From the IMG/VR virus record IMGVR_UViG_3300019926_000028, positions 1 through 56,382 of that record: 56,382 bases of DNA. One strand, 5' to 3'. The stretch comes from a virus (Duplodnaviria; Caudoviricetes). The position numbers and the translations under genes were made by a program. Positions 1,803-47,666 of this stretch are shown piece by piece. Position 1 is the first letter of the stretch, and each line of letters starts with the position of its first letter. Below the pieces are notes generated by a model, which saw only the letters and a list, made by a program, of their open reading frames with translations, did not search any database and had not been told where the DNA came from.

Positions 1803-3171
1803 CTAATAATCAAACAAACTTTGTTTAACAGTCTTATCTTCTGCGTTATTTATATCCAAGTAGTCTTTTGCTAATTCTTCAAACTCTTCGTGGTTTCGTC
1901 CTTTGAATTTGCCTTCAAGTGGTTTATGGCAAGCTTTACACAGAGAGATGAGATTGCGTAAATTATTCATTTTTTCATGCTCATCCTCTACGATCCAATA
2001 ATCAGCGGGAACTATATGATGTACATCGGGTTTCAAATTGTATTTTTGTTTAGTGTTAACTCCGCAAATTCTACAATTATTTCCATCTCTTTCCCTCACC
2101 TTCTTTTTTCTGCTCCACCATGAAGAACCATAGTATTTAACACCACCACCATTTTCTTTCCATAAATGATGCTCTTCACCTTTTGGTGCTTCCCATCCCT
2201 GTTTTATTTTTTCATTTGGTTCAAATCCCGCTTTCTCAACAGCTTTATTCCAACTTCCAAATTCATTCCTTACCCAATTTCTACTATATTTTGCATTTCT
2301 ATGATATGTTTTTTTGGTCCGGTGTTTCGTTTTTGTCGCAATAACATCTGTATATTCCCTTAATATCCTTAATTAATTGTTCTTTACCGGGATTATCTCT
2401 TCTAACAAGAGGTTCATATCCAATTTTTAATAGTGCTTTGTTAATAGTACCAAACTTTCTCGCATAAACAGTCCTGCTAAATTTAGATTCTGATATTATA
2501 TCGTGTGTTGAATTGTCAATTCCAATCCTATAAACTGCCTTCTTTAGTTCATCTAACGCTTTCTCTTTAGGAACTTCAACACCTTTTCTACTATTTTTTA
2601 AAGAAAATTTACTTTTTTGTATGATTTCTCCCCAAGAATCAAATTTATTTTGATAAGAGGTAAGTGAATATTTTGAATGCAAATTTATATCTTTTTGTGT
2701 TGGAATTTTATTTAATTTTTCTCCAACTCTTTCAAACTCAGAAATATACTCATCAATCGTTCTTGAATTATACGCCTCTGAATATTCTTTATGCCGGTAT
2801 TCTTCAAAACCACATTCCGATAAAGCATCCCACCAAGAATTTAAATGAGTTCTAAGAGTTGGAAATGAAAAATTTCCATATTCTTGGTATTGTGAGTATG
2901 ATGGCCGTCCTCTTACTTCTTCTGAAACTCTTTTGATGTCTTCTATTATCTTTTCACTAGAGATTGGATTTCCCCGTCCAACAGCATTTTTACTAAATCC
3001 AGCAACTTTTAACGCTTCGTTCCAAGAACCAAATCTATTTGAAAAAGTCGCATAAGAAATATCACCATATTTTTTCATATCTTTAACAGTTGGAGAACCC
3101 CCATCACAATACTCTTCTGATACTCTCTCTAATTCATTAACCAAGTCATCTTCGGAGTATTTAGTTGGCAT
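1803..3171 (-). pseudogene. HNH endonuclease with FGSW repeats, split by a 1-nt frameshift
   Basis: ORFs 2299-3171 and 1803-2099 join if one base is removed from the T7 run at 2309-2315. The joined protein reads PDQKTYHRNAKYSRNWVRNEFGSWNKAVEKAGFEP...YYGSSWWSRKKKVRERDG into the HNH domain. Confidence 0.8.
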
Positions 3172-3182
3172 ATCCCTGTCCT

Positions 3183-4349
3183 TCAGAGTTGCCCGCCATT
3201 AATTCGGATAGGTTCAACATCTTCCATGACTTTATCTTCAGAGGTAAACCAGAAAATACCACAAGAGCCGCCAGAAGATCCTTGAGATTCAGCGAAAGTT
3301 GAAGGCGGGGAAGGAGAACCAGTCATAACAACAGGAATTTCATCTCCAATACGCTCAATTAAGGTTTTGTGATAGTGGGAACGGAGAAGAATATCAAAAC
3401 CATACGCCATATAATCATCTTTCACTCGATTTTCTCCACTACTCGTTCCGACATGATTCAAATACCGTTCACCATGACGGGAAAGATAATCCCACCCACG
3501 AACCGAGAACTGAACAATACCAGCAGGACCGGCCTTGTTGATATTCACATTTTCCGCATCCGAGTAATGAAGAGCAGTTTCAACGAAATCAAACAACATC
3601 ATATCGAAATTCGTTGTACTCTCTTTATCGAGACGACCGTGATTACCCGGAACACATTGAACATCTACGTATTCAAACTGATCAGAGAGTTTCAAAATTT
3701 GCTCTATATACGTATTTCCTGCTTTCCGAAGCTGGTCACGGACATTATCTTCCTGTTCGTGTCGCTGTGATGCAAAGATGCCCTCTCCATCAACGTGATC
3801 GCCGTTCAAAACAAATACAACATCCTCAACATCACCACGACGTTCGGCATGAGCAATTCCTTTGTCTACATACTCCCGGATTGCCTTCCTAGCCTCTTCT
3901 GCACCGTAGTAATCCACGTCATATCGGTCTTGAACCACAGAGCCGACGTGTGCATCAGAATGAGGAAGGACGAGTGTAGAGCCGGAGTCAGACCGGGTAT
4001 AATCAGCCTTAACAGGGTCGGTATTATTGAGTGCTTCTTTAACCTCCTTTTCCATTTCCGTTAAAGCGTTATGAGTGTCCTTAGTAACCTGCGCTCTGTC
4101 ATAAGAATTGATTCGTTTTGGAGTTTCATTTCGCTCTTGACTTTCTCCACCGATATGCCATACATCATCACTATTCATATAAAATTCATATCCATGATCA
4201 TCTTCAAGAGCTTGCATCCGGTATCTTACTGCTCTCCGTGAAATATCAAGCTCATCAGCAATATTCTTCCGTGTATTTGGTAGCTTCTCCAAAACTGCTT
4301 GCTGCTTAGGAGTTATACTGTTCATAGTTTTAGAATTAATTTCACTCAT
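3183..4349 (-). CDS. HTH-fused calcineurin-like metallophosphoesterase
   Basis: N-terminal HTH (IADELDISRRAVRYRM); motifs SDAHVG, NGDHVDG, VPGNHG, RHG, SHYH. Confidence 0.8.
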   Translation of the reverse strand: MSEINSKTMNSITPKQQAVLEKLPNTRKNIADELDISRRAVRYRMQALEDDHGYEFYMNSDDVWHIGGESQERNETPKRINSYDRAQVTKDTHNALTEMEKEVKEALNNTDPVKADYTRSDSGSTLVLPHSDAHVGSVVQDRYDVDYYGAEEARKAIREYVDKGIAHAERRGDVEDVVFVLNGDHVDGEGIFASQRHEQEDNVRDQLRKAGNTYIEQILKLSDQFEYVDVQCVPGNHGRLDKESTTNFDMMLFDFVETALHYSDAENVNINKAGPAGIVQFSVRGWDYLSRHGERYLNHVGTSSGENRVKDDYMAYGFDILLRSHYHKTLIERIGDEIPVVMTGSPSPPSTFAESQGSSGGSCGIFWFTSEDKVMEDVEPIRINGGQL

Positions 4350-4716
4350 TAAAATTCTCCTCGCTTATTTTTCTACTATAGAAAAACTCCGGGTGTCCAA
4401 TCTCATAAGATGGACTATATTCCCCGGTTCTACTAATTATTTCGTAACCCATCTTAGGATGAGCATAATAAGTCACATCACCATTCTCATAAGCTAATAC
4501 ATCACTCCAATTTAATTCTTCCCACCCACCAAGATTGTTTTTATCATCGTTGGGTTCACTCACAATAACTTCTAATGCTGTACGGTCATCTTTAAAAGAT
4601 ATTTCAATATCTCCTTCTTTTGAATGAATTATTTGCCCGTCATATCCTTCAGGAACTTCTAATGTTCTGAACAATTCTCTTGGTTCATCAACATAATAAA
4701 TCTCTTGCTCACTCAT
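4342..4716 (-). CDS. Hypothetical protein
   Basis: Acidic ORF with starts and stops overlapping its neighbours; ATG at 4716. Confidence 0.6.
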   Translation of the reverse strand: MSEQEIYYVDEPRELFRTLEVPEGYDGQIIHSKEGDIEISFKDDRTALEVIVSEPNDDKNNLGGWEELNWSDVLAYENGDVTYYAHPKMGYEIISRTGEYSPSYEIGHPEFFYSRKISEENFNE

Positions 4717-4870
4717 TTTCAATCAAATCTTGTAGACCGTTTCTCTCAATAATAAAGTCCATCTCTTCACGGAGTCGTTCTACTTTATTTTCTAGTTCAG
4801 AAATGCGTTCTGCTTCAACCCCGGTCTGAAAATTGTCAATTTCGGATTCACCTTCTTCAGATTCTGTCAT
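4709..4870 (-). CDS. Small acidic coiled-coil protein (53 aa)
   Basis: Not in the ORF track: MTESEEGESEIDNFQTGVEAERISELENKVERLREEMDF... A GAAAGATATTTAAA promoter-like motif lies about 25 nt upstream, and the stop overlaps the next ATG. Confidence 0.55.
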   Translation of the reverse strand: MTESEEGESEIDNFQTGVEAERISELENKVERLREEMDFIIERNGLQDLIENE

Positions 4871-4923
4871 TATTCTTTAATACACGTTTAAGGTTTAAAT
4901 ATCTTTCCTTCTACTTCAACCTT

Positions 4924-5323
4924 TCTTCAACGCTACAGGCATTCATCTGAAACCGTGTTGGAACGCCTTCAACCCCTCAAAGGTTCATCTGAAACGACCT
5001 ATGGGATTCAAAGGGTGAACTTGAGGGCGAACCTTCAACCCCTCAAGGGTTCATCTGAAACGTTTGCTATCCTCCGGGGGTTTCATCCAGTCTCTCCCTT
5101 CAACCCCTCAAGGGTTCATCTGAAACTAAACGAATTGAAATTACGGTCTTATATTGCATGCCTTCAACCCCTCAAGGGTTCATCTGAAACTGACGTTTAC
5201 CGAGATACAGAAACAGCATTAGATCCTCCTTCAACCCCTCAAGGGTTCATCTGAAACTCTTGAAGAATTGAACCCACAGAATCCAAGTCAACACCTTCAA
5301 GCCCATAAGGGTTCGACGGAGTA
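4924..5323 (-). CRISPR. CRISPR array, 7 repeats (5 near-perfect, 2 degenerate terminal) and 6 spacers
   Basis: 30-bp repeat CCTTCAACCCCTCAAGGGTTCATCTGAAAC at 4966 (1 mismatch), 5032, 5097, 5161 and 5228, degenerate at 4924 and 5294. Spacers are 12, 36, 35, 34, 37 and 36 bp. The minus-strand repeat GTTTCAGATGAACCCTTGAGGGGTTGAAGG differs at 3 positions from the haloarchaeal I-B repeat GTTTCAGACGAACCCTTGTGGGGTTGAAGC, which suggests the orientation. Confidence 0.95.
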
Positions 5324-5738
5324 TGATTGTAATATTTCTTTTTCCGATTTGTGCGGTCTTGGTGTAGACCACTTAACTTTCGGCGGGGTGTTTCGTCTTA
5401 CCGTGAAGTGTTCGCTCCCACTTGGAATACGCCAAGCACCTTGCAGATTATAATTTCCGGAACCACATCGGTCAAATGACCTGTGTTCCAACTGTTGTTG
5501 GTCTGCTACTAACGCGAGGTGTGCGCTTTCAACGCCTCTTTTCTCCTATCCCAACGAAGACCGTGGGGTACGCCCCATGCATCCAAACAAGGCCGTTCTA
5601 TTGGGCTTAACGGAGGCGAAACTTACATCGGATAGCATCGATCCGATGAATCCGGTGAAGTGCCGGATATCGGAAAGTGACATATAGCCACTCCCGACTT
5701 CAACTCACCATATGGGAGGTTAGTTAATAACTCTTTCG
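5324..5738 (-). ncRNA. Candidate tracrRNA/omegaRNA-like scaffold
   Basis: GC-richer gap with no credible ORF and many hairpins (5421-5436, 5459-5489, 5564-5577, 5626-5648, 5650-5668). It also carries a partial anti-repeat at 5390-5412. Confidence 0.55.
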
Positions 5739-6935
5739 TTAATAACTGAACAGGCCACCCTCTTCAATATATTCATTAGCTTCATTCCGGATTTCAAACC
5801 CGTCGCTTTCAAAATCACTCCCACGAAATGCAATATTCATAGATGCATTCACATCAGCATGAACTTGATATCCACACTCACCGCATTCAAAATCAGTACC
5901 ATTTCGATTACTACTATGAACATAACCACAATTTCTACACGTCTTGCTCGTATTCCGAGGATCAACAACTTCAACCGGAATTCCTTTTGCTTTAGCTTTA
6001 TACATAATCATTTCTTGAGCAAGAGCATACGGCCAATCGTGAATCGCATTTGCTGCTGTCTTCCTATAGTTTGTTAGGTCCTCCAAAACAATTTTTGGAT
6101 TGTTATGCTGAGTAGCTTCCTTTACTATATTTTTGGATGCCGTATGGAGAACCTGTTCTGTATATTTCTCGTGTTGTCCACGGCATTCTTTAACACCTTT
6201 AACATCATTATTAGCCATCATTTCCGAACGTTTTTCTTTTAATCTTTCTCGGTGGTGTCTAAATTCAGAACCATCCTTCAATTCTACATTTTTAATTCCA
6301 TCATTAGAAAGAACAGAATATGTATAGATAACATTTTCTCCAAGATCAACACCAATTACTGTTTCAACCTCTTCATCTTCAATAACATCAACGTCCCATG
6401 TAACCACTAAATGTGCCTTTAATGTATCTCCATCTTTATGTATTTCACAAGTTCCAAATGACGCTCCTTCGTTAACTATCTTATCTAAATACCTCTTTGA
6501 AAATTTATTATCGTTGATATGGAACCACTCTGGTTTATACGGAACAATATTGAACTTAATTCCATACCCTTTGTTATTTTCTTCTACTGTAATTTGTTGG
6601 CTTTTTGCTCTAACATAATTTTGCTTCCCGAAAACTGGCTTATTGCCCACTTTACCATTACTTCTCCAAGATTTATAACCACTAACAACATCTCCAATTG
6701 CTTCTGAAGCAACTTGACCAGAAACATATCTATCATCCCCCCATTCTTCTACAACATTTCTATAAAATTGAGGATTCATTGTAGACCATTGATTTTCATC
6801 AAATGATAAAATTAAATCTGATACAAATTTACTCATCTCCTGATACTCATTTATACATTTTTGAATTTTGGTATTCTTCCTATTACTCGTTTCTAGGTCA
6901 AGTACAACAGTTTGAGCAACTGTTTCAGTTGGCAT
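5739..6935 (-). CDS. tnpB: TnpB/Cas12f-like RNA-guided RuvC nuclease (398 aa)
   Basis: RuvC-I IGVDLG, RuvC-II IVLEDL, VDPRNTSKTCRNCG...CGECG zinc finger and RuvC-III HADVNASMNIA. The D-E-D triad is intact. It has its own TATA box about 25 nt upstream, and no tnpA is nearby. Confidence 0.9.
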   Translation of the reverse strand: MPTETVAQTVVLDLETSNRKNTKIQKCINEYQEMSKFVSDLILSFDENQWSTMNPQFYRNVVEEWGDDRYVSGQVASEAIGDVVSGYKSWRSNGKVGNKPVFGKQNYVRAKSQQITVEENNKGYGIKFNIVPYKPEWFHINDNKFSKRYLDKIVNEGASFGTCEIHKDGDTLKAHLVVTWDVDVIEDEEVETVIGVDLGENVIYTYSVLSNDGIKNVELKDGSEFRHHRERLKEKRSEMMANNDVKGVKECRGQHEKYTEQVLHTASKNIVKEATQHNNPKIVLEDLTNYRKTAANAIHDWPYALAQEMIMYKAKAKGIPVEVVDPRNTSKTCRNCGYVHSSNRNGTDFECGECGYQVHADVNASMNIAFRGSDFESDGFEIRNEANEYIEEGGLFSY

Positions 6936-10810: not shown

Positions 10811-11175
10811 CTCCCGCTTTAACAGAAACAAAGGAATACGATCTGCCGTTTAGCGATTCGGTTGAGTTGGAAGTTAGTTACAACCGGATTTTAAGTCGGT
10901 TTACTATTGCCTCTCGTATGCCGAATGGCCTTCCGGAGCGGAATGAAAACAAGAAGCTTACAGAAAATGATTGGGATTTTCTACGTTGGATTGTAGATGA
11001 TTATACGAATAAGTCGTTCCGGCAGCTTTTAAATTCGGATGATTCTAATGATAAAGAAGTGGCTTATATTCTTAACATCACAATTGAGACTATACTCGGT
11101 AAGGAAATTACATCGTGGGAAGAATATAAAGGAGAAGAAGAGTTTGTAAGTAAAGGAAGTCTTGGTGTTCAATAA
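10807..11175 (+). CDS. Hypothetical protein
   Basis: Translationally coupled on both sides. Confidence 0.6.
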   Translation: MTPALTETKEYDLPFSDSVELEVSYNRILSRFTIASRMPNGLPERNENKKLTENDWDFLRWIVDDYTNKSFRQLLNSDDSNDKEVAYILNITIETILGKEITSWEEYKGEEEFVSKGSLGVQ

Positions 11176-11996
11176 TGATTACTAAAGCGAAATTCGAAAC
11201 GACCCGTGGTAATTTGCAGAAAATGCTCAAGTGGATTTCGGCCCCACTTGATGATCAATACGATAAGGCGTGGCTGAATATTCAAGATGAAGAATTACAC
11301 GCTGTTGCAAGTATGGGACAGGCAGTTGTCTCCTACTGTACTTTCAGCCAGCCTTTCGTTCAGGATATTGATATTCACGATGATGTTGATGCTTCTGCTG
11401 GTATTGAAAGCATGATTAACCTTGAAGACCTGAAGGATTACGTTGATTTCGTTGGCGGTGAACGGGTTGAAGTTTCGTTCTTGGGTAATGAGGGTGAGCA
11501 GTTGTGTCGGAAGATGGAAATTGATGGTGATATTCATGTTGATCTGTACGTTCCTTCTTCAGAGGCAGATTATGAGTCTCAACAGACAGGTATTGTGAAC
11601 CTGTATGATGATGAGAACCGTTGGCATAAGCCAAGCGACGATGAACCACTTTCGACCCGGTTCCGGACTAAGGTGCGAGAGTTTGAACGTATTGTGAAGG
11701 TGACACAGTTCGATGATTTCGCTCTTAGCACCTATCCCGTCGTGATCGAAGATGGTGAATTCTTGTTGGATGCGAAAGATGAAAACGAACGCAATTCCAT
11801 TCAGGGTAGCCTTGATGCTCAGGATGTTGACGGGCCGGATGTAAACAATTCCTATAGTCGTGGATTTGAGGAATTGTTCAATAACATTAGTGGTGAAGTG
11901 TGGGTTGATATTGAGCAGGATACTCCCATTAATGTTGTTCGGGAGAGTAATGATTCGGCGATGCAGCTACGTTTCATTTTGTTGCCTACGCAATAG
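11175..11996 (+). CDS. pcn: PCNA-like sliding clamp
   Basis: 273 aa. The N-terminus KAKFETTRGNLQKML...AWLNIQDEELHAVAS and C-terminus LRFILLP resemble PCNA ends; both RFC subunits and PolB are in the window. Confidence 0.65.
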   Translation: MITKAKFETTRGNLQKMLKWISAPLDDQYDKAWLNIQDEELHAVASMGQAVVSYCTFSQPFVQDIDIHDDVDASAGIESMINLEDLKDYVDFVGGERVEVSFLGNEGEQLCRKMEIDGDIHVDLYVPSSEADYESQQTGIVNLYDDENRWHKPSDDEPLSTRFRTKVREFERIVKVTQFDDFALSTYPVVIEDGEFLLDAKDENERNSIQGSLDAQDVDGPDVNNSYSRGFEELFNNISGEVWVDIEQDTPINVVRESNDSAMQLRFILLPTQ

Positions 11997-12038
11997 TAGA
12001 CGAAACGCTTTTATTTGACGGTCTACTCGTTTCTGTTA

Positions 12039-13340
12039 ATGAGCGACGATATGCTACCTGTTGGAGAGATTGTTACTGAACCACACTCTATTATCCAATC
12101 GGATGCTACTGAGTTACCGCATGAAGATGAGAGTTTTCACGCTATAGTTACTGATCCTCCATATGGATTAGCGTTTATGGGTAAAAATTGGGATCAGTTT
12201 GAACCAAAAGAATATCAACAATTTTGTGAAGATTGGGGTAAGGAATGCTTTCGTGTGTTGAAACCCGGTGGTCATATGCTTGCTTTTTCGGGTACGAGAA
12301 CGTATCACAGAATGGCTACTGGTGTTGAAGATGCTGGTTTTGATATTCGTGATAAAATTGATTGGCTCTACGGAGGTGGGTTTCCAAAAAACCACAATAT
12401 TTCTAAATCTATCGATAAAAAATTGGGAAAAGAAGATGAAAGAGAAAAAGACGGTGTAAAACCGGGACATGAAGAATTTGCTGATAGAGATACAGAAGGC
12501 CATTTGGGAGGTGAAGATTCTAATGAAGGTTATAAAAGACCGTGGATGGAAGAAGACGATGCTAATGAGTACCATTATAAAACGAAAGCCGCTACAGAAC
12601 AAGCACGTCGTTGGGAAGGGTTTGGGACAGCGTTGAAACCTAGCCATGAACCTATTGTAGTCGCTCGGAAACCGTTAGAAGAAGATACTGTGGCTGGACA
12701 AGTTATGGCTACAGGGACAGGTGCTTTGAATATTGATGGGACGAGAATTGCTACAGATGAAGAATGGGAAGGCAATAAAATGCGTGATGCTGATGAGGGA
12801 GTAGTTTTAGATGGTAGTGTAAGTGGTGAATTGAATCAACAGTCTTCGGGTAGTCACGAAGAAGATCGTTATCCTGCCAATATAATTCTTGATTTTGAAA
12901 CGGCTCAAATGTTGGATGAAGAAGTTGGTGAATCTACTTCGGCGGCTTCAAAAGAATATCATAAGGAATATGGCGATGATAGTATGATGATGGATGGTGA
13001 GAGCCATCCCGGTAATCAATATACCGATACAGGCGGTCCATCCCGGTTTTTCTATACGGCAAAAGCATCTAAGTCTGAACGAACGATGAATAATAGAATC
13101 GATAACCCCCACCCGACAGTCAAACCCGTTGATTTGATGGCTTATCTTGTTAGACTTGTTACTGCTGAAGGGCAGAAGGTATGTGACCCATTCTTGGGTT
13201 CAGGAACAACCCTTTTGGGTTGCGAGCAAGAAAATCGGGTAGGGTACGGTTCAGACATGGATAAGGAATACTGTGAGATAGCGACGAAGCGACTTGGGGT
13301 TCGGCTCGGGACTGAAATGGGTTCATTCATGGACTACTAA
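12039..13340 (+). CDS. DNA methyltransferase, N4-C/N6-A beta class
   Basis: TDPPY, RVLKPGG, HPTVKP, DPFLGSGTT; ATG at 12039 follows a BRE/TATA at 12001. Confidence 0.9.
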   Translation: MSDDMLPVGEIVTEPHSIIQSDATELPHEDESFHAIVTDPPYGLAFMGKNWDQFEPKEYQQFCEDWGKECFRVLKPGGHMLAFSGTRTYHRMATGVEDAGFDIRDKIDWLYGGGFPKNHNISKSIDKKLGKEDEREKDGVKPGHEEFADRDTEGHLGGEDSNEGYKRPWMEEDDANEYHYKTKAATEQARRWEGFGTALKPSHEPIVVARKPLEEDTVAGQVMATGTGALNIDGTRIATDEEWEGNKMRDADEGVVLDGSVSGELNQQSSGSHEEDRYPANIILDFETAQMLDEEVGESTSAASKEYHKEYGDDSMMMDGESHPGNQYTDTGGPSRFFYTAKASKSERTMNNRIDNPHPTVKPVDLMAYLVRLVTAEGQKVCDPFLGSGTTLLGCEQENRVGYGSDMDKEYCEIATKRLGVRLGTEMGSFMDY

Positions 13341-14661: not shown

Positions 14662-14756
14662 GAGAATGTATGAATCCGGATTGTTCGGATCGAACAGAGG
14701 GGATGTATAAAATGTTTTGTAGTAATTGTCATTGGTCGGTGGTTGTAGATGTTTGA
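14658..14756 (+). CDS. Small Cys-rich protein
   Basis: Not in the ORF track: MRECMNPDC...FCSNCH; coupled to both neighbours. Confidence 0.4.
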   Translation: MRECMNPDCSDRTEGMYKMFCSNCHWSVVVDV

Positions 14757-15801: not shown

Positions 15802-15808
15802 TCACTTT

Positions 15809-15892
15809 GCACCCGTGTTCCAAGCTTGGTAAGGAGTCCGGCTTAAGACCGGATGGTATAGTCCCTCGTAGGTTCAAATCCTACCGGGTGCA
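15809..15892 (+). tRNA. trnL: tRNA-Leu (anticodon TAA)
   Basis: Acceptor stem GCACCCG/CGGGTGC plus A, anticodon arm TCCGG-CTTAAGA-CCGGA, long variable arm, T arm GTAGG-TTCAAAT-CCTAC. Confidence 0.93.
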
Positions 15893-15895
15893 TGA

Positions 15896-35193: not shown

Positions 35194-35195
35194 TA

Positions 35196-36677: not shown

Positions 36678-36719
36678 CGAAACGTTTTTATACTTCGGTC
36701 TGTTATGACAACCTGTATC

Positions 36720-38786
36720 ATGGCAGACCAGTCAACCCGCAAGTCGCTTGACGCTATCAATCAGGAGTACCGAAACAGCATCCCCGAAGATATCCGAGAA
36801 TCGTATTCCTTTGAATGGTATCTTGACGAGGTTTACAATTCGCCACTCATCACCCGAAACGCACATCAGCGAGTTGCTGATATGTTTGAATATTTCGGGA
36901 CTGAATACGACGAAGACACGGGTATTGTCGAATACAAACTAGCCAGCGAAGACCCGCTTCATGATGGTGATAACGTCTTCTTTGGACGTGAAGTTCATGA
37001 AGCAATTCACGAGTTTGTGAATAAGGTTTATTCGGGTGCGCGTGGCCTTGGCCCGGAAAAGCGAATTAAACTTCTTCTTGGGCCGGTTGGGTCTGGCAAG
37101 TCTCACTTTGATTCGCGGCTTCGAAAGTATTTTGAAGAGTATACTCAGCGGGAAGAAGGACGGATGTACACTTTCCGGTGGACGAATCTTTGTGATGTGA
37201 TTGAAGATCAAGACCCATCTGATGATACTGTTCGTTCAGCGATGAATCAAGACCCGATTGTTCTTCTTCCCGAAGATCAACGGCGGGAGATTTTTGATTC
37301 ACTTAATCAGTCTGTTGATGCTGATTATAGGTTGGATAATAAGCAGTCTCTCGATCCACGAAGCGAATTCTTCATGGATGAACTGCTTGATTATTACGAT
37401 GATGATCTTCTCGCTGTTTTAGAGAATCACGTTGAAGTTATCCGTCTCATCGCAAATGAAAACCGCCGTCGTTGTGTTGAAACGTTTGAACCGAAGGATA
37501 AGAAAAATCAGGATGAAACGGAACTGACGGGGGATATTAATTACAGTAAGATTGCCGTGTATGGCGAATCTGACCCTCGTTCGTTTGAATATTCGGGAGC
37601 ATTCTGTAATGCCAATCGTGGTATTTTCTCCGGTGAAGAGTTGCTAAAGCTACAGAAGGAATTCCTGTATGATTTCCTTCACGCTACACAGGAGAAAACC
37701 ATCAAGCCACGAAATAATCCACGAATGGATATTGATCAAGTGATTGTCGGTCGAACGAATATGCCTGAGTATACTGAAAAGAAGGGGGATGAGAAGATGG
37801 AAGCATTCAACGACCGGACGAAGCGGATTGATTATCCATACGTGCTTGAGTATTCCGAAGAGGCTAATATATATGAAAAGATGCTTAATAATGCCTCTGT
37901 TCCGGAGGTTCATGTCGAACCGCACACGCTTGAAATGGCTGGTTTGTTCAGCGTAATGACGCGGGTTGATGAACCCGATACAGATAATATTGATCTGCTT
38001 CAGAAGGTGAAGGCGTATAATGGCGAAGATGGTGATATTGGTGATATTGATGTTCACAAGCTTCGTGAAGAATCCGAAGAGGAAGGGATGTATGGTGTCT
38101 CTGCCCGTTTTGTTGGCGACGAGATTTCCGAGGCTATTGTTACCCGGCTTCATGATGATAACAATTCACTATCCTCTCTTGCTGTTCTACGACACCTAGA
38201 ACAGAACCTAGAGAGTCACGGTTCGATTCCCGAAGACAACTACGACGATTACTATACCTACATCGAAGAAGTTCAGGAAGAATACAAAGACCGTGCTATT
38301 GAAGATGTTCGATACGCTCTCGCTTACAATACTGATGAAATCCAGCGAGAGGGGGAGAAGTACATGGATAACGTTGTGGCGTATATTGATGATGATAAGA
38401 TTGAAGATGATATCACGGGTGAAATGGTTGAACCTGATGAGCAATTCATGCGGTCTGTGGAGGAAGAGCTAGATATCCCCCGTGATCGGAAAGATGATTT
38501 CCGACAAGAAATCTCCAATTGGGTTACTCGTCGCGCCCGAAGTGGTGAAGACTTTGATCCGACCGACAATGACCGTCTTCTCCGCGCTCTTGAACGAAAG
38601 AATTGGAGCGATAAGAAGCATAATATTAACTTTTCTGCTTTGATTCAAAGTGATAGTGATGGTGATTCAGAGGAACGAAGCGATTGGATCGAAGCACTCA
38701 AAGAGCGTGGATACTCCGAAGAAGGCGCTCGGGAAGTTCTTGAATTCGCTGGTGCAGAGGTTGCTAAGGAGGAAATTGACGGATAA
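36720..38786 (+). CDS. prkA: PrkA/YeaG-family AAA+ ATPase / serine kinase 1
   Basis: RNAHQR, LLGPVGSGKS, DETELTGD, ANRG, EELLK, EAFNDR, PYVL, APHT-like EPHTLE. Confidence 0.9.
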   Translation: MADQSTRKSLDAINQEYRNSIPEDIRESYSFEWYLDEVYNSPLITRNAHQRVADMFEYFGTEYDEDTGIVEYKLASEDPLHDGDNVFFGREVHEAIHEFVNKVYSGARGLGPEKRIKLLLGPVGSGKSHFDSRLRKYFEEYTQREEGRMYTFRWTNLCDVIEDQDPSDDTVRSAMNQDPIVLLPEDQRREIFDSLNQSVDADYRLDNKQSLDPRSEFFMDELLDYYDDDLLAVLENHVEVIRLIANENRRRCVETFEPKDKKNQDETELTGDINYSKIAVYGESDPRSFEYSGAFCNANRGIFSGEELLKLQKEFLYDFLHATQEKTIKPRNNPRMDIDQVIVGRTNMPEYTEKKGDEKMEAFNDRTKRIDYPYVLEYSEEANIYEKMLNNASVPEVHVEPHTLEMAGLFSVMTRVDEPDTDNIDLLQKVKAYNGEDGDIGDIDVHKLREESEEEGMYGVSARFVGDEISEAIVTRLHDDNNSLSSLAVLRHLEQNLESHGSIPEDNYDDYYTYIEEVQEEYKDRAIEDVRYALAYNTDEIQREGEKYMDNVVAYIDDDKIEDDITGEMVEPDEQFMRSVEEELDIPRDRKDDFRQEISNWVTRRARSGEDFDPTDNDRLLRALERKNWSDKKHNINFSALIQSDSDGDSEERSDWIEALKERGYSEEGAREVLEFAGAEVAKEEIDG

Positions 38787-38789
38787 GGC

Positions 38790-40943
38790 ATGACTAATCC
38801 AATCCAAAAGGCCGAAGAAGAATACTCCCAGAGGGAGAGTGAAGAATACTCTCTTGAAGAGTTTCTTGAGTACGCTAAAGAAAATCCAAACACGGTTTCC
38901 AATTCGGTGCAGTATCTCGTGAATGCGATTGAGCATTTCGGAACGAGAACTGTTATCGAATATGGTGAAGAGAAGGAACGCTACCGTTTCTTCGATGACC
39001 CCGTGAACGATGGTGAACACGCCGTTCTTGGAAACACAGAAGAGTTAAACAAATTCGTTGATTCGCTGAAGCGAAAAGCATCTTCGGATGGTGAAAACGA
39101 TAAGATAATCTGGTTCACGGGGCCAACAGCGACGGGCAAATCAGAGCTAAAGCGTTGTCTATTGAATGGACTGCAAGCGTATGCGAATACGGAAGAAGGA
39201 CGTAGATATACGCTCAAGTGGAGTCTCGATTCATTATCAACATCGGGAATGACGTATGGTGATGAATTTAGAGGTGAAAGGGATTGGTATAAGAGTCCTG
39301 TCCATGTCAATCCGCTCGCCGTTTTGCCAGATTCAGTTAGAGAGGAATATCTTGAAGAATTAAACGAGGATAGTGAATCATACGTCCGTTTCGATGGAAG
39401 ACTTGACCCGTTTAGTCGGGTTGCATACGATCATCTCCAAGATGAATATGATTCATTTTCCGATATCGTTTCAGATGATCATTTAAAAGTTGTTTCTTAT
39501 ATTCCCGATATTGGAGAAGGATTTGGGTTGCTTCAATCAGAGGATGGTGGTGATCCAAAGCAGAGGATTGTTGGTTCTTGGATGCAAGAATCGATGCAGG
39601 AATATGCAGAGCGAGGTAGAAAGAACGCACAAGCGTTTACATACGATGGAGTGCTTTCACAAGGTAATTCATTGGTTTCTGTTGTGGAAGACGCACAGCA
39701 CCATTCTGAGGTGTTTACAAAACTAATGAATGTGTGCGAAGAAGATATAGTCAAGCTGGATAACAAGATTGCGATGCATATTGATTCTGTTATAATTTGC
39801 ATCTCCAATCCGGATTTTGAAGCGGCTTTAAACGAATTTGAAGACGCCGGTTCAAAAGACCCACAGAAGGCACTCCGCCGAAGACTTGAAAAATATCAAT
39901 TTAGATACCTCACAAGCTTGGTGCTTGAAACCCAACTTCTCATTAAACACCTTACAAAAAGGAATGTCTTTTGGGAGAATGAAGACGTTGAAGAGTTGGT
40001 AGAGCGCGTTTCTACACCGATTGAGAAGTATGGAACGCACTTCAGCCCCCATGCAATTGAAGCGGCTGCATACTTTAATGTATTAACTCGTATTGAACCC
40101 GGAGATATTGGGAAAAATAATAAGATTCAATACTACGATAAAGGATATAATATTGTAGATGATGAGAAAGTTGAATATGATGAAAAGATGGTGCTTTCAG
40201 AGGCGGATGGGAGAGAAGGTCTTCCTGTAACCTATACTGAAGATATACTTTCTCAACTTGCTCAAGAATTTGAAGGTCCGGTCATGCCACACGACGTAAT
40301 TGAAGCAATGAAAGAAGGTCTTCAGGGTTCGCCTATATTCTCCGATGATGAGAGAACTGACTATAAAATGGAAAAGGGGAACGTTAAAGCATATATCTCA
40401 GACGAGATGAGGAAAGACGTTCTTGAAGCTATTATTGCTGGTGATGATGTAACTAAAGATGAAATTGATTCTTATGTTGATTCTATTATTGCATGGGATG
40501 AAAATGATGAAGAAAACTACGACGCATATGAACTTCGGGAGTTTGAGAAGAAATATTTCAACTCTGCTTCCGGAGAATATGGAGAAAATGCTGAACCTTC
40601 GAATTTGATTGAATCTTTCCGAGAAGATAAAATCATTCAACCACTCAACAGGTACTACTATGAAAATTCGGATGACGGATACGATCCGGAGAACATTCCG
40701 ATAGAGGAAAGTCATGTCTTAAAAACGCTTCTTGAAGATGAGTCGTGGAAGCGTGTTGAACAGCTATATCCGAATCTTGATTATGCTCTATGGGAGAACC
40801 CACCGGAAAACTCCGAAACCGAAGAGGTTAAAAATAAGGCGATAGAAAATATGAAGGAAATGGGGTACACTGATGAATCAGCAAAACTAGCGTCAACACG
40901 GATTATTAGAGCGAGAAAGGAGGTGGCTAATAATGGGACTTAG
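38790..40943 (+). CDS. prkA: PrkA/YeaG-family ATPase 2
   Basis: RYRFFDDP, GPTATGKS, YDGVLSQGN, ISNP, ALRRRL, SPHAIE. Confidence 0.85.
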   Translation: MTNPIQKAEEEYSQRESEEYSLEEFLEYAKENPNTVSNSVQYLVNAIEHFGTRTVIEYGEEKERYRFFDDPVNDGEHAVLGNTEELNKFVDSLKRKASSDGENDKIIWFTGPTATGKSELKRCLLNGLQAYANTEEGRRYTLKWSLDSLSTSGMTYGDEFRGERDWYKSPVHVNPLAVLPDSVREEYLEELNEDSESYVRFDGRLDPFSRVAYDHLQDEYDSFSDIVSDDHLKVVSYIPDIGEGFGLLQSEDGGDPKQRIVGSWMQESMQEYAERGRKNAQAFTYDGVLSQGNSLVSVVEDAQHHSEVFTKLMNVCEEDIVKLDNKIAMHIDSVIICISNPDFEAALNEFEDAGSKDPQKALRRRLEKYQFRYLTSLVLETQLLIKHLTKRNVFWENEDVEELVERVSTPIEKYGTHFSPHAIEAAAYFNVLTRIEPGDIGKNNKIQYYDKGYNIVDDEKVEYDEKMVLSEADGREGLPVTYTEDILSQLAQEFEGPVMPHDVIEAMKEGLQGSPIFSDDERTDYKMEKGNVKAYISDEMRKDVLEAIIAGDDVTKDEIDSYVDSIIAWDENDEENYDAYELREFEKKYFNSASGEYGENAEPSNLIESFREDKIIQPLNRYYYENSDDGYDPENIPIEESHVLKTLLEDESWKRVEQLYPNLDYALWENPPENSETEEVKNKAIENMKEMGYTDESAKLASTRIIRARKEVANNGT

Positions 40944-42219
40944 AGAGGATTTGGATAGATTCAAAAAGATCGGTGAAGAAGAGCGGCAAGATTTGGTAGA
41001 ATTTATCAAACACGGAGAGATGGAAAGCGGTGATATTAAAATCCCCATCAAAGTTGTAGACCTTCCGGAGTTTGAATATGATCAGTTCTCTATGGGCGGT
41101 GTCGGGCAAGGCGAAGGTGAGGTTGGTGATCCCGTTGATGTTGATGCAGAAGAGGAAGGTGAAGGTGAAGAAGATGAAGCAGGAGAAGACGGGGGAGAGC
41201 ATGGATACTACGAGATGGACCCCGAAGAGTTTGCTCAAGAGTTGGATGACCGTCTCGGTCTTGACCTTGACCCAAAGGGAAAGAAGGTAAAAGAAATCAC
41301 AGAAGGTGCGTTAGTTGAAAAAGTTCGAAGCGGGCCTGATGCAACCGTTGATTTTGAAGAGTTATATAAGAAAGGACTAAAGCGAGAACTTGCACTTTTC
41401 TTTGATGAGGATTACATCCGAGAAGTGATGAAAGTTGCAGGCTTCGGTGTTGAACAGACATTTGATTGGGCTAGAGGAAATAATATCCCCGTTTCAAAGG
41501 GTTGGATTCAAAACGAATATAGAAATATATCACAACCGACAAAGTACAAATCAATAGATGAAATCGAACAAGAACGGCGAAGGCAACCGACAGCAAGAGA
41601 ACTTAGCTCGGTGCAACTCCGACGAGAAGACAAGAGACACAAGTACCCGGAAATCAGTAAAGAATACGAGAAGAACGCGGTTATTGTCTTCATTAGAGAC
41701 GTTTCCGGTTCGATGGGTAAAAGCAAACGGGACTTGGTTGAGCGTGTATTTACTCCGTTAGATTGGTATCTGACAGGTAAGTATGATAATGCCGAATTCC
41801 ACTACATCGCTCACGATGCTGAAGCTTGGGAAGTGGAACGAGAGAAGTTCTTTGGAATAAAGTCTGGTGGAGGAACGAAGATTTCTTCAGCATACTTACT
41901 TGCTCAAGAAATACTTGATTCCGAATACCCGTGGAGTGAATGGAACAGGTATGTCTTCGCAGCAGGTGATGGTGAGAATTGGATGCAAGACACAGAAGAA
42001 GAAGTTATTCCATTAATGGAAGAAATTGATTGCAATCTTCATGGATATGTTCAAGTTCAGAGCGATGGTCAATATGGTATAACTTCATCGGGAGTGCATG
42101 GGGAAGAGGTTGAAGACCACTTCGGAGACGATAGTAATGTCGCTGTTACATACATAGACGATAAAGATGACGTGATGGAATCGATTGAAGATATTCTTTC
42201 AACGGAGGATTCAGAATGA
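40933..42219 (+). CDS. yeaH: YeaH/YhbH (DUF444) vWA-domain protein
   Basis: MGLREDLDRF, GGVGQG, RDVSGSM MIDAS, SGGGTKISSAY, WNRY...GDGEN. Confidence 0.88.
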   Translation: MGLREDLDRFKKIGEEERQDLVEFIKHGEMESGDIKIPIKVVDLPEFEYDQFSMGGVGQGEGEVGDPVDVDAEEEGEGEEDEAGEDGGEHGYYEMDPEEFAQELDDRLGLDLDPKGKKVKEITEGALVEKVRSGPDATVDFEELYKKGLKRELALFFDEDYIREVMKVAGFGVEQTFDWARGNNIPVSKGWIQNEYRNISQPTKYKSIDEIEQERRRQPTARELSSVQLRREDKRHKYPEISKEYEKNAVIVFIRDVSGSMGKSKRDLVERVFTPLDWYLTGKYDNAEFHYIAHDAEAWEVEREKFFGIKSGGGTKISSAYLLAQEILDSEYPWSEWNRYVFAAGDGENWMQDTEEEVIPLMEEIDCNLHGYVQVQSDGQYGITSSGVHGEEVEDHFGDDSNVAVTYIDDKDDVMESIEDILSTEDSE

Positions 42220-43961
42220 TTGACTCAATTGAAAAGAAGAAAGAGAACATCAGTAGAGAATTGGAGGAAGTGGCCGAAGATTCGCACGAGTTAGCGGAAG
42301 AACTTGGTCTATCTCCACGAGATGTGAAATATTGGATCGTGGATAATACTGAGATGAATGAATTGATTTCATACGGTGGTTTTCAAAAACGTTATCCACA
42401 TTGGCGATGGGGGATGCAGTATGACCAACAGCGGAAGAAGAATCAATTCATGGGTGGAAAGGCGTTTGAAATCGTGAATAACGATGACCCGTGCCATGCT
42501 TTCCTTCAGATGAGTAATGATATTGCTGACCAAAAGGCAGTCATTACGCACGTTGAAGCCCACTCTGATTTCTTCGCTAATAATCAATGGTTTGCTGATG
42601 ATCCGAATTCTTCCGAAATGTTAGCCCGGAATTCTGAAAAGATTGAGGCTATCATGGAAGATACGGACGTTGAACGTGCTGAAGTTGAGAAGTGGATTGA
42701 CAATATCCTATGTCTAGAAGACAATATAGACCAATATTCTGAATTTATCTGGCGAGATTTGAGTGAAGATGAAAAAGAAGATTCATCTAAAGAAAATCCA
42801 CTTGAAAATCTTAATTTGAGCGATGATGTGGAGAGAGCAGTTGTAGATGATTTGAACGAAGCAAAAAGTGTTGAATCATATCTCGACACCACCGAGAAAG
42901 ATATTCTTAAGTTCTTAATTGATAATGGCAAACAATATGATGGCGAAACTTCCCGAGAATATGAAGATTGGCAGTTAGAGATTCTTGATATTCTTCGTGA
43001 AGAAGCATATTACTTTGCCCCACAGAAGATGACGAAGGTGATGAATGAGGGTTGGGCGGCAATTTGGGAGAGCATCATGATGACTGATGAGCAGATTGCC
43101 GATGAAGAGGATTTAATCAAGTATGCAGATCATATGAGTGCTGTTCTCAACAGTCCCGGCTTCAATCCATATAGTCTCGGAATGACGCTATGGCAACATA
43201 TTGAAAACACGGTTAACCGAAGGGAAGTAGTGGATAAACTGCTTCGGATTGAAGGTATTACGCCCGATAACTTCCGTAGAAGCATCGATTTCCAGAAAGT
43301 CCACGATGCTCTCGATAAAAGAGATTCGGATGATGTTGTAGAGCGAAATTACTCTCTTACCCGCATTGGAAACCAAGGGTTCATTCAAGAAATACCGCTT
43401 GAAGAGCTTCGAAAGAGTTACCGATATGTTGTAGATCGTGACCGTTACAATAGTATAGAAGGAGCATTGCAAGATGTTGATTATGGGCGTGGATGGGAAC
43501 GGATGAGAGAAATCCGCGAAGCCTATAACGATGTGATGTTTATTGACGAATTCTTAACGCAAGAGTTTGTTGATGATCAGGAATTCTTCACCTACGAATA
43601 TAGAATTTCCGATCAAGAGTTTGAAGTTGCAAGTCGTGATGTTGAAGATGTTCGAAAGAAGCTTCTGTTGAAATTCACGAACTTCGGTAAGCCGACTATT
43701 GAAGTAGCAACAGATAACTTTAGAAACAGCGGCGAATTGCTACTGCTTCACAAGTTTAATGGCGTTGTTATCAATCTTGAATCAGCACAGGAGGTGGTGA
43801 AAGCGAAGAGTGGGAAGCGAGGTATGAAATACCATACCGTTAGAGACTGTCAATTTCTACGGTCAGCAGATAATGTACGAGCGCCAACCGAGAGTGAATT
43901 AGAGTGGCACGAACCCGAAGAGTGTTCAAACTGCAAGCAGATTAGGGAGAATAATGAGTAA
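42216..43961 (+). CDS. spoVR: SpoVR/YcgB-family protein with an atypical C-terminus
   Basis: RYPHWRWG, FEIVNN, HVEAHSDFF, YFAPQKMTKVMNEGWA, FNPY.LG, NDVMFI, GKPTI, ELLLLH. Confidence 0.88.
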   Translation: MIDSIEKKKENISRELEEVAEDSHELAEELGLSPRDVKYWIVDNTEMNELISYGGFQKRYPHWRWGMQYDQQRKKNQFMGGKAFEIVNNDDPCHAFLQMSNDIADQKAVITHVEAHSDFFANNQWFADDPNSSEMLARNSEKIEAIMEDTDVERAEVEKWIDNILCLEDNIDQYSEFIWRDLSEDEKEDSSKENPLENLNLSDDVERAVVDDLNEAKSVESYLDTTEKDILKFLIDNGKQYDGETSREYEDWQLEILDILREEAYYFAPQKMTKVMNEGWAAIWESIMMTDEQIADEEDLIKYADHMSAVLNSPGFNPYSLGMTLWQHIENTVNRREVVDKLLRIEGITPDNFRRSIDFQKVHDALDKRDSDDVVERNYSLTRIGNQGFIQEIPLEELRKSYRYVVDRDRYNSIEGALQDVDYGRGWERMREIREAYNDVMFIDEFLTQEFVDDQEFFTYEYRISDQEFEVASRDVEDVRKKLLLKFTNFGKPTIEVATDNFRNSGELLLLHKFNGVVINLESAQEVVKAKSGKRGMKYHTVRDCQFLRSADNVRAPTESELEWHEPEECSNCKQIRENNE

Positions 43962-46605: not shown

Positions 46606-47216
46606 AAAATACTCTATTTGTACATGGGAATTTAGTAGATTCTTCTTGTTGGAATGATCTCATAGATTACTTAGTTGATAAAGGAGTATCGTCCAAAAAG
46701 TTATGGACTATTGATTTTGAAAACGTTGGAGAGCCACACGATTCAATGGCTGAACAGTTAGAAGATTTTTACATAGGCAATTTTGAAGGCCAAGAAATTA
46801 ATGTAGTTGGTCACAGTCTCGGTGCTACAGGTATTCGGTACTGGTTGGAGAAGCATGACCGATATGATTCAGTTGATTCAGTTGTTTACATGGCAGGAGC
46901 GATGCATGGAACGTATATGTGTATGCTAGAAGATTGGTTTAGTGATGATATTACTGAACCATGCGAACGCATCTCTGTCTCTTCCCTCAAAGATAAAGAT
47001 AATTTACTTGCTCAAATAAATTCAGAAAATGAGACTCCGGGGGATATTGAATACTATACTATCAGAGCGATGTTTGATAGATACTATACTTTCAATCCCA
47101 CGAGTCCAAAATTGAGAGGTGCTGAGAAAAATTTGTTAGTGGCATCCACACACCGTGGCCTTCTTACTAATCTTCAAGTGAAAGAAGCTCTTTACGAGTG
47201 GTTATTTGAAGAGTAA
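46602..47216 (+). CDS. Alpha/beta-hydrolase (lipase/esterase-like)
   Basis: FVHGN oxyanion motif, VGHSLG nucleophile elbow, AGAMHGT, ETPG, D and H near the C-terminus. Confidence 0.8.
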   Translation: MKNTLFVHGNLVDSSCWNDLIDYLVDKGVSSKKLWTIDFENVGEPHDSMAEQLEDFYIGNFEGQEINVVGHSLGATGIRYWLEKHDRYDSVDSVVYMAGAMHGTYMCMLEDWFSDDITEPCERISVSSLKDKDNLLAQINSENETPGDIEYYTIRAMFDRYYTFNPTSPKLRGAEKNLLVASTHRGLLTNLQVKEALYEWLFEE

Positions 47217-47248
47217 GAGTTTTAAGTTTTGCGCTGTAACTATTTTAC

Positions 47249-47461
47249 ATGGAAGTTAAATTCCAAGCTTCGGAAGAATCAGTCGAAGAGATGGGCTATG
47301 CCATTATTGATCGAGCCAATCGGGTTAAAAAGAATGGACATGAAGAATTGGCCTTAGAAATGCGAATGGTTGGGCGACAACATATTGATCGTTGTCGTTA
47401 TGATGATACTGAAAATGAAGAAAAAGACTTTGAAGAAAGCCTTATGGAAGATTTAAAGTAA
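47249..47461 (+). CDS. Hypothetical protein
   Basis: Leaderless after TTTTAAG. Confidence 0.55.
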   Translation: MEVKFQASEESVEEMGYAIIDRANRVKKNGHEELALEMRMVGRQHIDRCRYDDTENEEKDFEESLMEDLK

Positions 47462-47471
47462 AAAGGAAAAA

Positions 47472-47666
47472 ATGGGAAGCCCTTGCATCGATTGCTATTC
47501 ACACGATACAGAAATTGTTTGGTATGATGATGGACATTTTCGAAAGGAGTGCGCTGATTGTGGCTATATCGGTGGCCCTTACGTTTCTTCACAGGGAAGT
47601 GATGAATATGGCACAGAAGAAAAAGAAACCTCTCAAAACGTAGCTGAGAGCGTCTTTGATTATTAG
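47472..47666 (+). CDS. Zinc-ribbon protein with a PIP-like tail
   Basis: CIDC, CADC; ends AESVFDY. Confidence 0.6.
   Translation: MGSPCIDCYSHDTEIVWYDDGHFRKECADCGYIGGPYVSSQGSDEYGTEEKETSQNVAESVFDY

Follow-up and report, generated by a model that had tools for sequence, protein, structure and literature searches.

A short C-terminal tag of the PIP-box type on DNA enzymes of an uncultured haloarchaeal virus, a TnpB nuclease among them, and its probable docking on a sliding clamp

Why should a clamp loader, a helicase, four DNA methyltransferases, a homing endonuclease, a small zinc-ribbon protein and an RNA-guided nuclease of the TnpB type all end in practically the same five residues? This question is raised by the IMG/VR record IMGVR_UViG_3300019926_000028, whose 56,382 bp were analysed here in full and are referred to as the window (the window is the entire record; IMG/VR class linear; CheckV completeness 53%). 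It comprises roughly half the genome of an uncultured tailed virus of haloarchaea from a salt lake, related to the Druskaviridae (HVTV-1/HCTV group). Sliding clamps are universal toolbelts of replication, and short tails decide which enzymes ride on them. We found that the shared ending is a real and lineage-specific tag, derived from the PCNA-interacting peptide (PIP) box, with the tagged TnpB as its most novel client, and we argue that it probably docks its carriers on a sliding clamp, which is probably the one encoded by the virus itself. The case for docking rests mainly on comparative evidence, with the prediction of one complex raising the odds a little; from this evidence we infer the physical binding, the identity of the clamp and the role of each tethering.

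All six frames of the window, that is, 1602 stop-to-stop frames of at least 20 amino acids, were scanned for the terminal pattern [GSTK][ILVMF][FM][DS][FY]. Nine frames end in it, and these are exactly the genes listed by the sequence-only reading, a first inspection of the DNA made without database searches, each of whose quoted C-termini was found in its place (Table 1). That reading had spoken of about ten tagged proteins; nine genes do carry the tag, while the tenth candidate, a QKTMDF near the end of the family B DNA polymerase (PolB), is not conserved. The form observed in the nine genes is [S/G]-[V/I/L/F]-[F/M]-[D/S]-[Y/F]-stop, and the five-residue core occurs 13 times among 78,018 six-frame residues, nine of these being at a protein end. 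Chance was estimated on 86 greedily chosen open reading frames (ORFs) of at least 60 amino acids (16,685 residues), using a four-residue motif, which was found eight times at the terminus and four times internally; the internal rate predicts 0.021 terminal motifs and composition predicts 0.034 (Poisson probability 8e-19). The ninth tagged gene, which encodes the zinc ribbon, is left out of this set because a longer antisense frame overlaps it. Moreover, synonymous codons vary among the nine tails and all three stop codons are used, which points to selection on the peptide rather than on a repeated DNA. With nine terminal cases against some 0.02-0.03 expected, and with codons that differ, the proposal that these tails form a non-random tag on unrelated proteins is therefore upheld.

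Table 1. Coordinates of the tagged genes of the window, of the proposed clamp, and of untagged or neighbouring features discussed in the text.
Feature	Position	Strand	C-terminus	Basis and remarks
RFC large subunit (clamp loader)	27137-28393	+	QKGIFDF, after an acidic linker	Pfam AAA, Rad17, AAA_lid_RFC1
Superfamily 2 (SF2; XPD/Rad3-like) helicase	33553-35193	+	QGSVFDY	Pfam Helicase_C_2, DEAD, ResIII
N6/N4 DNA methyltransferase	12015-13340	+	MGSFMDY	Pfam N6_N4_Mtase, E 2e-36
D12-class N6-adenine DNA methyltransferase	16372-17283	+	ERSVFDY	Pfam MethyltransfD12, E 6e-27
Probable DNA methyltransferase	28393-29106	+	EKGIFDF	PHROG 363 'DNA methyltransferase', E 4e-13; no Pfam match
Dam-like DNA methyltransferase	35196-35748 (119-amino-acid ORF 35389-35748)	+	EGSVFDY	Pfam Dam, PHROG 111
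HNH homing endonuclease, two frames	1803-3171	-	KQSLFDY	Pfam HNH_repeat (four), HNH/HNH_2
Zinc-ribbon protein, 64 amino acids	47472-47666	+	AESVFDY, after a polar linker	C5xxC8...C27xxC30 in translation
TnpB (IS200/IS605 OrfB-type RNA-guided nuclease)	5739-6935	-	EGGLFSY, ending an extension of about 28 amino acids	Cas12f1-like_TNB, E 3e-22
Sliding clamp, divergent PCNA, virus-encoded; proposed tag receptor	11175-11996	+		AlphaFold2 (AF2) predicted fold and Foldseek
RFC small subunit, untagged	18609-19589	+	...IP.YE, in the gene and its orthologues	Pfam AAA, Rep_fac_C
Family B DNA polymerase, untagged	23333-25957	+	...EQKTMDFGGGNPFA	about 40% identity to Druskaviridae PolB
Conserved structured RNA, omega-RNA-like	5330-5738	-		directly downstream of tnpB; seven-contig alignment
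CRISPR array	4924-5328	-		five intact and two degenerate 30-nt repeats; Rfam CRISPR-DR24 (five)

According to Pfam and PHROGs, every tagged protein of recognisable family acts on DNA, and the linkers ahead of the tags are usually polar or acidic, and flexible. The tag is absent from the genes of nucleotide metabolism in the window (GMP reductase-like enzyme, dCTP deaminase, TMP kinase) and from its PrkA/DUF444/SpoVR genes. In variant contigs from hypersaline-lake metagenomes (two studies), other genes end in ...DDGSVFDY and ...NRSVF.. at junctions 33511 and 35741, and thus the tag recurs in the natural population.

Some of the carriers have peculiarities of their own. First, the nuclease that had been described as a split HNH does have its tail, and its gene is frameshifted: the frame 1803-2372 holds the fifth 'homing endonuclease associated repeat' together with the HNH domain, the frame 2299-3171 holds repeats, and the tagged ORF (1803-2099) is the frameshifted continuation of the latter, with the break between 2299 and 2372. 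The window encodes three other HNH-repeat nucleases, none of which has the tag. Second, the Dam-like ORF (119 amino acids) covers positions 60-138 of the 169 of the Pfam Dam profile, and the frame read from 35200 matches PHROG 111 at E 2e-40. The ATG at 35196 and the body, open from 35200, are in different frames owing to an (AG)12 tract (35203-35226); with 13 or 10 AG units the gene would be in frame. This tract may be that of a phase-variable methylase in an archaeal virus, or else an assembly error; contigs from four metagenome runs of hypersaline lakes skip positions 35191-35236. Third, the zinc-ribbon protein has a weak match to DUF2387, which is below the cut-off.

The tail of the RFC large subunit (RFC-L) is the anchor case for what the tag is. 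In cellular haloarchaeal RFC-L (five of five genomes), an acidic linker is followed by Q-[S/A]-G-L-[S/N]-D-F-[M/L/V/F]-stop; a PIP consensus of this type is quoted as canonical in the text available of PMC2737543. The viral RFC-L ends ...EDDEQKGIFDF-stop, in the same place and behind the same kind of linker, an arrangement at the extreme C-terminus that it also shares with RFC-L of P. furiosus (structure 1isq). Against the haloarchaeal QSGLSDFM, the viral QKGIFDF is alike at positions 1, 3, 4, 6 and 7, with Q, G, an aliphatic residue, D and F matched, although it is one residue shorter and has Phe at position 5. Because the viral tail stands where cellular RFC-L carries its PIP box, the tag is a shortened and relaxed derivative of the archaeal PIP box, Q-x-x-L-x-x-F-phi, of which it retains positions 1-7 and ends at the aromatic residue. 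In the other eight tails positions 3-7 are common, and the helicase alone among them has the Gln of position 1; the HNH tail has a Gln at -6, one place off that position. Position 4 of the PIP box is represented by L, V, I or F at -4 in all nine tails, position 7 by Y or F as the final residue in all nine, and all nine stand at the extreme C-terminus. Thus, the viral tag differs from the archaeal RFC-L box in that it stops at position 7, has Phe at position 5, lacks the Gln in seven of nine cases and is found on nine unrelated carriers.

A second line of evidence comes from related viruses. A profile of the viral PCNA led to 14 IMG/VR loci, and four larger contigs, termed G001 (106 kb, with terminal repeats) to G004, were analysed whole. 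The RFC-L tail is kept in five of five relatives of low GC content, as KGLFDY (twice), KGIFSY, MSIFDF and GSIFDF, and also in RFC-L of HVTV-2; the helicase tail is kept in four of four orthologues as [ST][VI]FDY; and four further N6_N4 methyltransferases are tagged in G002-G004. Terminal tags number 3, 3, 5 and 4 in G001 to G004, respectively, against 0.01-0.07 expected, and the tag is conserved on orthologues that are only 44-52% identical. We did not count as tags a 44-amino-acid ORF of G001 (55441-55575), a G001 ORF ending SLMVGY, or small proteins ending QNV[IV]D[YF], whose counterpart in the window (33301-33513) does not have such an end. When 13 IMG/VR loci were surveyed within 10 kb on either side of the clamp gene, few tags turned up, as tagged genes lie further off.

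In HVTV-2, all 102 kb of which were covered, seven annotated proteins end in [V/P]-L-[D/E/G/S]-[F/Y/W], namely, gp68, RFC-L, an N6-adenine methylase, an acetyltransferase, PolB, a 98-amino-acid HNH protein and gp99; three regular-expression matches on unannotated frames were dropped. All seven are encoded at 33.8-52.3 kb, that is, in the replication module. Position -3 is Leu in 7/7 of the HVTV-2 tags versus Phe in 8/9 of those in the window, and a change of flavour that runs through a whole set of unrelated proteins is to be expected if they share one receptor with which they co-evolve. No structural protein has the tail in the complete HVTV-2 or in G001. For HSTV-2 (Hafunaviridae), by contrast, 50 of the 68.5 kb were examined; this stretch has neither the tag family nor an annotated PCNA, and PolB ends in a full host-type PIP box of eight residues, ...QSGLGAFI.

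As for PolB in the window, the earlier suggestion that its QKTMDF is a clamp motif was discarded. The protein ends ...EQKTMDFGGGNPFA, but at the place of QKTMDF two full-length low-GC orthologues read KDMTNG and LDINND, which rules it out as a PIP box. It is the terminal NPF[A/G/Q] that is conserved (25916-25957 in the window, and the two full-length orthologues, in G002 and G004), with G or Q as the last residue in the full-length orthologues, and in HVTV-2 PolB an acidic linker and the tag, ...GVLSW, come after the corresponding NPFA.

The proposed receptor is the divergent PCNA encoded in the window, where genes for a loader, RFC-L and RFC-S, are also present. Its AF2 model (pLDDT 91.5, pTM 0.89) has the two-domain beta-alpha-beta-beta-beta fold of PCNA clamps, and Foldseek returned at least 500 PDB matches at E <= 0.001, the roughly 50 listed at the top being all PCNA-type clamps (TMt 0.68-0.80, 8-15% identity), H. 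volcanii PCNA and the P. furiosus PCNA with its RFC-L PIP peptide (1isq) included. No Pfam family (PCNA_N or PCNA_C) matches the ORF at E <= 0.01, and a profile of 43 viral-clamp homologues found no PCNA among PDB sequences at E <= 1; membership of the clamp family thus rests on the fold. With this predicted fold, the PCNA-like gene that the sequence-only reading had placed here, and on which it had staked its proposal, is confirmed. The protein shares 31% identity with the annotated PCNA of HVTV-2, gp101, and Kazlauskas et al. (2016, PMC4889955, main text) have already described the clamp of HVTV-1 as distantly homologous to PCNA.

Complex prediction was made for a single pair, the viral PCNA with TnpB residues 361-398, together with three controls. 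The pair reached a median score of 0.33, the best control 0.02, and no interface was reported; over the runs, contact agreement was at least 36% and the pLDDT of the partner at least 35. In calibration, 58 of 80 solved complexes and 2 of 110 mismatched pairs came up to the mark; at scores of 0.60 or less, only 7 of those 80 complexes did so, together with both passing mismatches. Since PCNA-peptide complexes are in the PDB, the pass may also reflect likeness only. The prediction thus weakly suggests that the TnpB tail may dock on the viral PCNA.

A number of observations weigh against clamp docking. First, the features of the canonical PIP box, Q-x-x-[LIM]-x-x-[FY]-[FY], are found in part: its Gln (position 1, here -7) is present in two of nine tails, RFC-L and the helicase, the rest having E, M or A; position 8, present in 5/5 host RFC-L, is absent from 9/9 tags in the window and 7/7 in HVTV-2; and GGLFSY of TnpB is the weakest match of the nine. 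Second, PolB, a classic clamp client, is untagged in the window and in its two full-length low-GC orthologues, as are RadA, the Cas4-like nuclease, Hjc, the primase-like protein, an exonuclease and three full-length HNH paralogues in the window. Third, the viral PCNA is only 8-15% identical to the listed PDB clamps, so a peptide pocket is not a given, and by the above calibration a pass such as that of the TnpB tail is more often wrong than right unless the pair was likely beforehand. Fourth, the comparison of flavours rests on two lineages, and the HSTV-2 contrast on a single genome, examined over 50 of its 68.5 kb. Taking these together with the comparative evidence, we put at about 0.65 the probability that the tag serves to dock its carriers on a sliding clamp, which is probably the viral one.

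The alternative that survives best is that the tag binds the PCNA of the host rather than the viral clamp, the host ring being hijacked for viral enzymes. The derivation of the tag from a host-type PIP box at the same position of RFC-L, the abundance of host PCNA at forks and the weak complex prediction with the viral clamp would all suit such a receptor. However, the hydrophobic last residue of 5/5 host RFC-L is found in 0/9 tags of the window and 0/7 of HVTV-2, whereas HSTV-2, with no PCNA annotated in the 50 kb, puts a full host-type PIP box on its PolB. In addition, every virus in which we saw the tag family encodes this divergent PCNA plus RFC, and the flavour of the tag varies by viral lineage. 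Based on these differences, we regard a host receptor as unlikely.

The tail could also dock on another shared hub, such as the viral RFC, RadA, a single-strand-binding protein, the polymerase or a scaffold of a virus factory. Clamp binding is, after all, a prediction, the canonical PIP features are found in part only, and an untagged PolB would fit PolB itself, or another part of the replisome, as the receptor. Yet the tag of RFC-L is found exactly at the site of the PCNA-binding box of cellular RFC-L, PIP positions 4 and 7 are kept in all nine tails, and the pair of viral PCNA and TnpB tail outscored all three controls, which leaves a different hub with a slim chance. That the tail would be a C-terminal degron, or a stability or sorting signal, acting in timed proteolysis or virion packaging, seems very improbable: short hydrophobic-acidic-aromatic tails at the C-terminus can indeed be signals for proteases or chaperones, but here the carriers of recognisable family are all DNA enzymes, the clamp loader included, no structural protein of the complete HVTV-2 or G001 is tailed, and the positional homology with the RFC-L PIP box would go unaccounted for. 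Finally, chance, a compositional effect of proteome acidity and a repeated stretch of DNA that happens to close ORFs are all refuted, even though D and E abound in halophile proteomes and 19 of the 86 ORFs end in E, by the observed 8-9 against 0.02-0.03 expected tags, by the differing synonymous and stop codons and by the conservation on orthologues at 44-52% identity.

TnpB is the most novel client of the tag, and its tail (codons 5742-5762, minus strand) was followed through the family. The survey of homologues that had been proposed along with the idea found the tail in 17 of the 18 closest among 102 homologues, all of one virus-borne clade at 51% identity or more, and in none of the 84 others. 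In those 17 the RuvC motif 'HADVNA.MNIA' is followed by some 28 additional residues, which end in [S/T/G]-[L/V/I]-[F/L]-x-[Y/F]; the tail is conserved at -5 (S/T/G), -4 (L/V/I), -3 (F/L) and -1 (Y/F), and the linker preceding it is variable. In the AF2 model of the window copy (mean pLDDT 84.9), the last 12 residues, 387-398, are below 50 and so predicted to be flexible. The Ser at -2 of GGLFSY also occurs in KGIFSY, the RFC-L tail of G002. Residues D197, E285 and D361, which by the position of conserved motifs we take to be the catalytic triad, as well as the zinc-finger cysteines C333, C336, C351 and C354, are invariant in an alignment of 16 sequences of the clade.

The tailed TnpB behaves as a resident of these viruses. 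Its loci were found with alignment-based scans, as single-protein searches gave none in viral or genome contigs. It occupies the same site in five contigs (the window, L038, L090, L093 and L104), beside a divergently oriented RadA-like gene, and where the contig runs on, the same RNA region, a CRISPR array and the exonuclease gene lie downstream of TnpB. The L090 copy is 86% identical to that of the window, with flanking genes at 70-90%, and the L038 copy 64%, with flanks at 46-86%; as the divergence of TnpB tracks that of its neighbours, it behaves as a resident gene of the virus. TnpB is present as a single copy and no Y1 transposase (TnpA) was found in the window, insertion sequence (IS) ends not having been searched; both TnpB and the array are absent from G001-G004. 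When 185,579 species genomes were scanned with the clade alignment, 36 loci were obtained, the best at 49% identity, and none aligned past query residue 380. By these patterns, the tailed clade is absent from cellular genomes, and the tail is a clade-specific addition in a virus-resident lineage. Hence, the proposed domestication of this nuclease by the virus stands as far as residence, the clade-specific tail and the fixed site are concerned, but its label of Cas12f does not, as discussed below.

A comparable picture is offered by the D12-class methylase. Among the best 120 of its 2352 homologues, the tail is present in two, the gene itself and a relative at 86% identity (SVFDY), relatives at 54-71% identity mostly end ...YVNY[DE][IV]TDEML..AF[ED], and cellular methylases have neither ending. 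To judge from these distributions, the tag appears to have been gained independently by separate carriers, the D12 methylase and TnpB. The alternative ending, ...TDEML..AF[E/D], may be the docking tail of another lineage (proteins P0151-P0168).

About 415 nt after the tnpB stop are better conserved than the TnpB protein. RNAalifold on six contigs predicts 96 pairs in this RNA, 32 of them with compensatory changes, and no Rfam family matches it at E <= 1; it looks like a guide RNA scaffold of the omega type. The CRISPR array begins about 17 nt after this structured RNA. Its repeat is of the common haloarchaeal type: with up to three mismatches allowed, matching arrays occur in 46 of the 401 Halobacteria genomes sampled (reversed control, 0). 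No anti-repeat longer than 9 bp was found in the structured RNA, the best complementarity being 9 bp with G-U pairs. We thus rejected a TnpB/Cas12-type array as the working reading and regard it as the less likely one; without an anti-repeat above 9 bp and with a repeat of host type, the nuclease is not called Cas12f and the array is read as a host-type mini-array. A blastn search of the array region against 50,697 records of cultured phages gave no protospacer match. The module of RNA and array is found only where the tailed TnpB occurs, in four contigs (window 4924-5738, minus strand; L038:9106-9720; L093:818-1560; L104:1509-2270), and since this pairing traces to a single ancestral event it does not count as independent evidence of a functional link.

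How do these viruses compare with known clamp systems? The gp45 clamp of phages T4 and RB69 is a hub for the C-terminal tails of the gp43 polymerase and of the late-transcription proteins gp33 and gp55. As there, the window encodes both clamp and loader, and unrelated viral proteins have short hydrophobic/acidic tails at their C-termini; in contrast, T4 and RB69 are bacterial viruses with a clamp of another lineage, whose clients are a polymerase and transcription factors, whereas the candidate clients here are methyltransferases, a helicase, homing nucleases and TnpB, and PolB of the low-GC clade is untagged. Eukaryotic DNMT1, a maintenance C5 methylase, is coupled to PCNA through a PIP box in its N-terminal region. 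The likeness is that of a DNA methyltransferase tethered, here by prediction, to a clamp through a PIP-type motif, and the difference is that the window has four methylases of prokaryotic N6/N4 type with C-terminal tags, in a virus.

For TnpB, a precedent exists in the insertion sequences themselves. In the accessible text of Gomez et al. (2014, PMC3971601), M. barkeri PCNA binds a C-terminal PIP box of an archaeal IS200 TnpA, beta-clamp motifs are described in several IS families, for which convergent and repeated gain is argued, and a putative clamp motif is placed at the C-terminus of a cyanobacterial IS200/IS605 OrfB. Common to both is a protein from the IS200/IS605 world with a C-terminal clamp motif; the protein tested there, in so far as that text describes it, was TnpA, and the remark on OrfB concerned a bacterial beta-clamp motif, unlike the present TnpB in a virus with its own PCNA. 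A clamp-tethered TnpB had been put forward as new, and our literature search, supplements aside, indeed found no report of a clamp-bound TnpB, nor of the tag family in archaeal viruses; this precedent qualifies the claim.

The closest relatives to be compared are the Druskaviridae (HVTV-1/HVTV-2, HCTV-1/5). Their replication module of PolB, RFC-L, RFC-S and a distant homologue of PCNA (Kazlauskas et al., 2016, PMC4889955) agrees with that of the window in gene set and order; the main text of that paper does not contain the words PIP, clamp-binding and PCNA-binding. PolB of the window is 39-41% identical to that of the Haloarcula tailed viruses HVTV-1/2 and HCTV-1/5/16, PCNA is about 30% identical, and HVTV-2 has the same kind of tag family. 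The differences are in GC content (about 39% in the window against 58%), in the flavour of the tag (F-D-Y against L-D-F), and in TnpB, the CRISPR array and a larger number of methyltransferases, which are found in the window.

Most genes of the window are on the plus strand. Its replication genes include RadA, a primase-like protein (PHROG 9660), RFC-S, RFC-L, PolB and the very divergent PCNA, and it further encodes a Cas4-like nuclease, an Hjc resolvase, a dCTP deaminase, a TMP kinase, a GMP-reductase-like enzyme, several homing endonucleases of the HNH type and a PrkA/DUF444/SpoVR cluster. Neither capsid nor tail genes were recognised, in keeping with half a genome. Clusters of the PrkA/YeaH/SpoVR type are familiar from cellular stress or sporulation operons; the one in the window (36705-43961) has two PrkA-family genes, DUF444 and SpoVR, and occurs at 45-77% identity in G001 and G002. 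A gene for tRNA-Leu(TAA) (15808-15893) adjoins the IMPDH/GMP-reductase-family gene (14749-15711). A region of about 2.3 kb (51640-54000) is unlike the rest of the window, with 32% GC, no GC skew and hardly any ORF of 50 amino acids or more. Lastly, a family of small proteins with a terminal zinc-ribbon knuckle, ...[EG].F[YF]CP.C.., is scattered among the replication genes (19579-19911, 25954-26256, 30274-30516 and 31348-31611); all of them are untagged.

Under the reading that we prefer, docking on a sliding clamp, the tail would insert into the hydrophobic pocket that lies beneath the interdomain connector loop in each PCNA subunit, and the PCNA would most likely be the viral clamp. Viral RFC would load the trimeric ring on replicating viral DNA, where the ring would act as a toolbelt that recruits the clamp loader, the XPD-like helicase, the four methyltransferases, the homing HNH nuclease, the zinc-ribbon protein and TnpB. 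Methylation would in this way be coupled to replication, so that newly made viral DNA is protected. The resident TnpB, whose lineage gained the tail and retains the catalytic residues and a large structured RNA of the guide type, would bring RNA-guided cutting to replication forks.

It is tempting to go further and to speculate on a private clamp code. The divergent viral PCNA would then read a seven-residue tag that the host clamp does not use, plugging its carriers into viral forks only, and the tag would have been gained repeatedly and independently by four methylase families, a homing HNH nuclease and a captured TnpB. The latter would ride the clamp and home into, or cleave, the DNA of co-infecting relatives or of the host, forming one anti-competitor module with the mini-array. 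This extended scenario is possible, though we consider it doubtful.

If the tags are what we propose, their set amounts to a list, readable from sequence, of the fork-associated proteins of the virus, and to a natural, possibly orthogonal, pair of clamp and peptide. Scanning of tails would then be a cheap way of assigning a role in replication to proteins such as gp68 and gp99 of HVTV-2 and the 64-amino-acid zinc ribbon. Should the tail bind the clamp, methylation by four methylases would be replication-coupled in an archaeal virus, a simple means of protecting nascent DNA, and TnpB would have a clamp tether that links RNA-guided cutting to replication forks. Such a tethered TnpB would bear on how TnpB is retained, on homing and on the early recruitment of nucleases of this kind for other uses. 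The cultured Haloarcula viruses of the HVTV/HCTV group make the clamp-tag idea directly testable.

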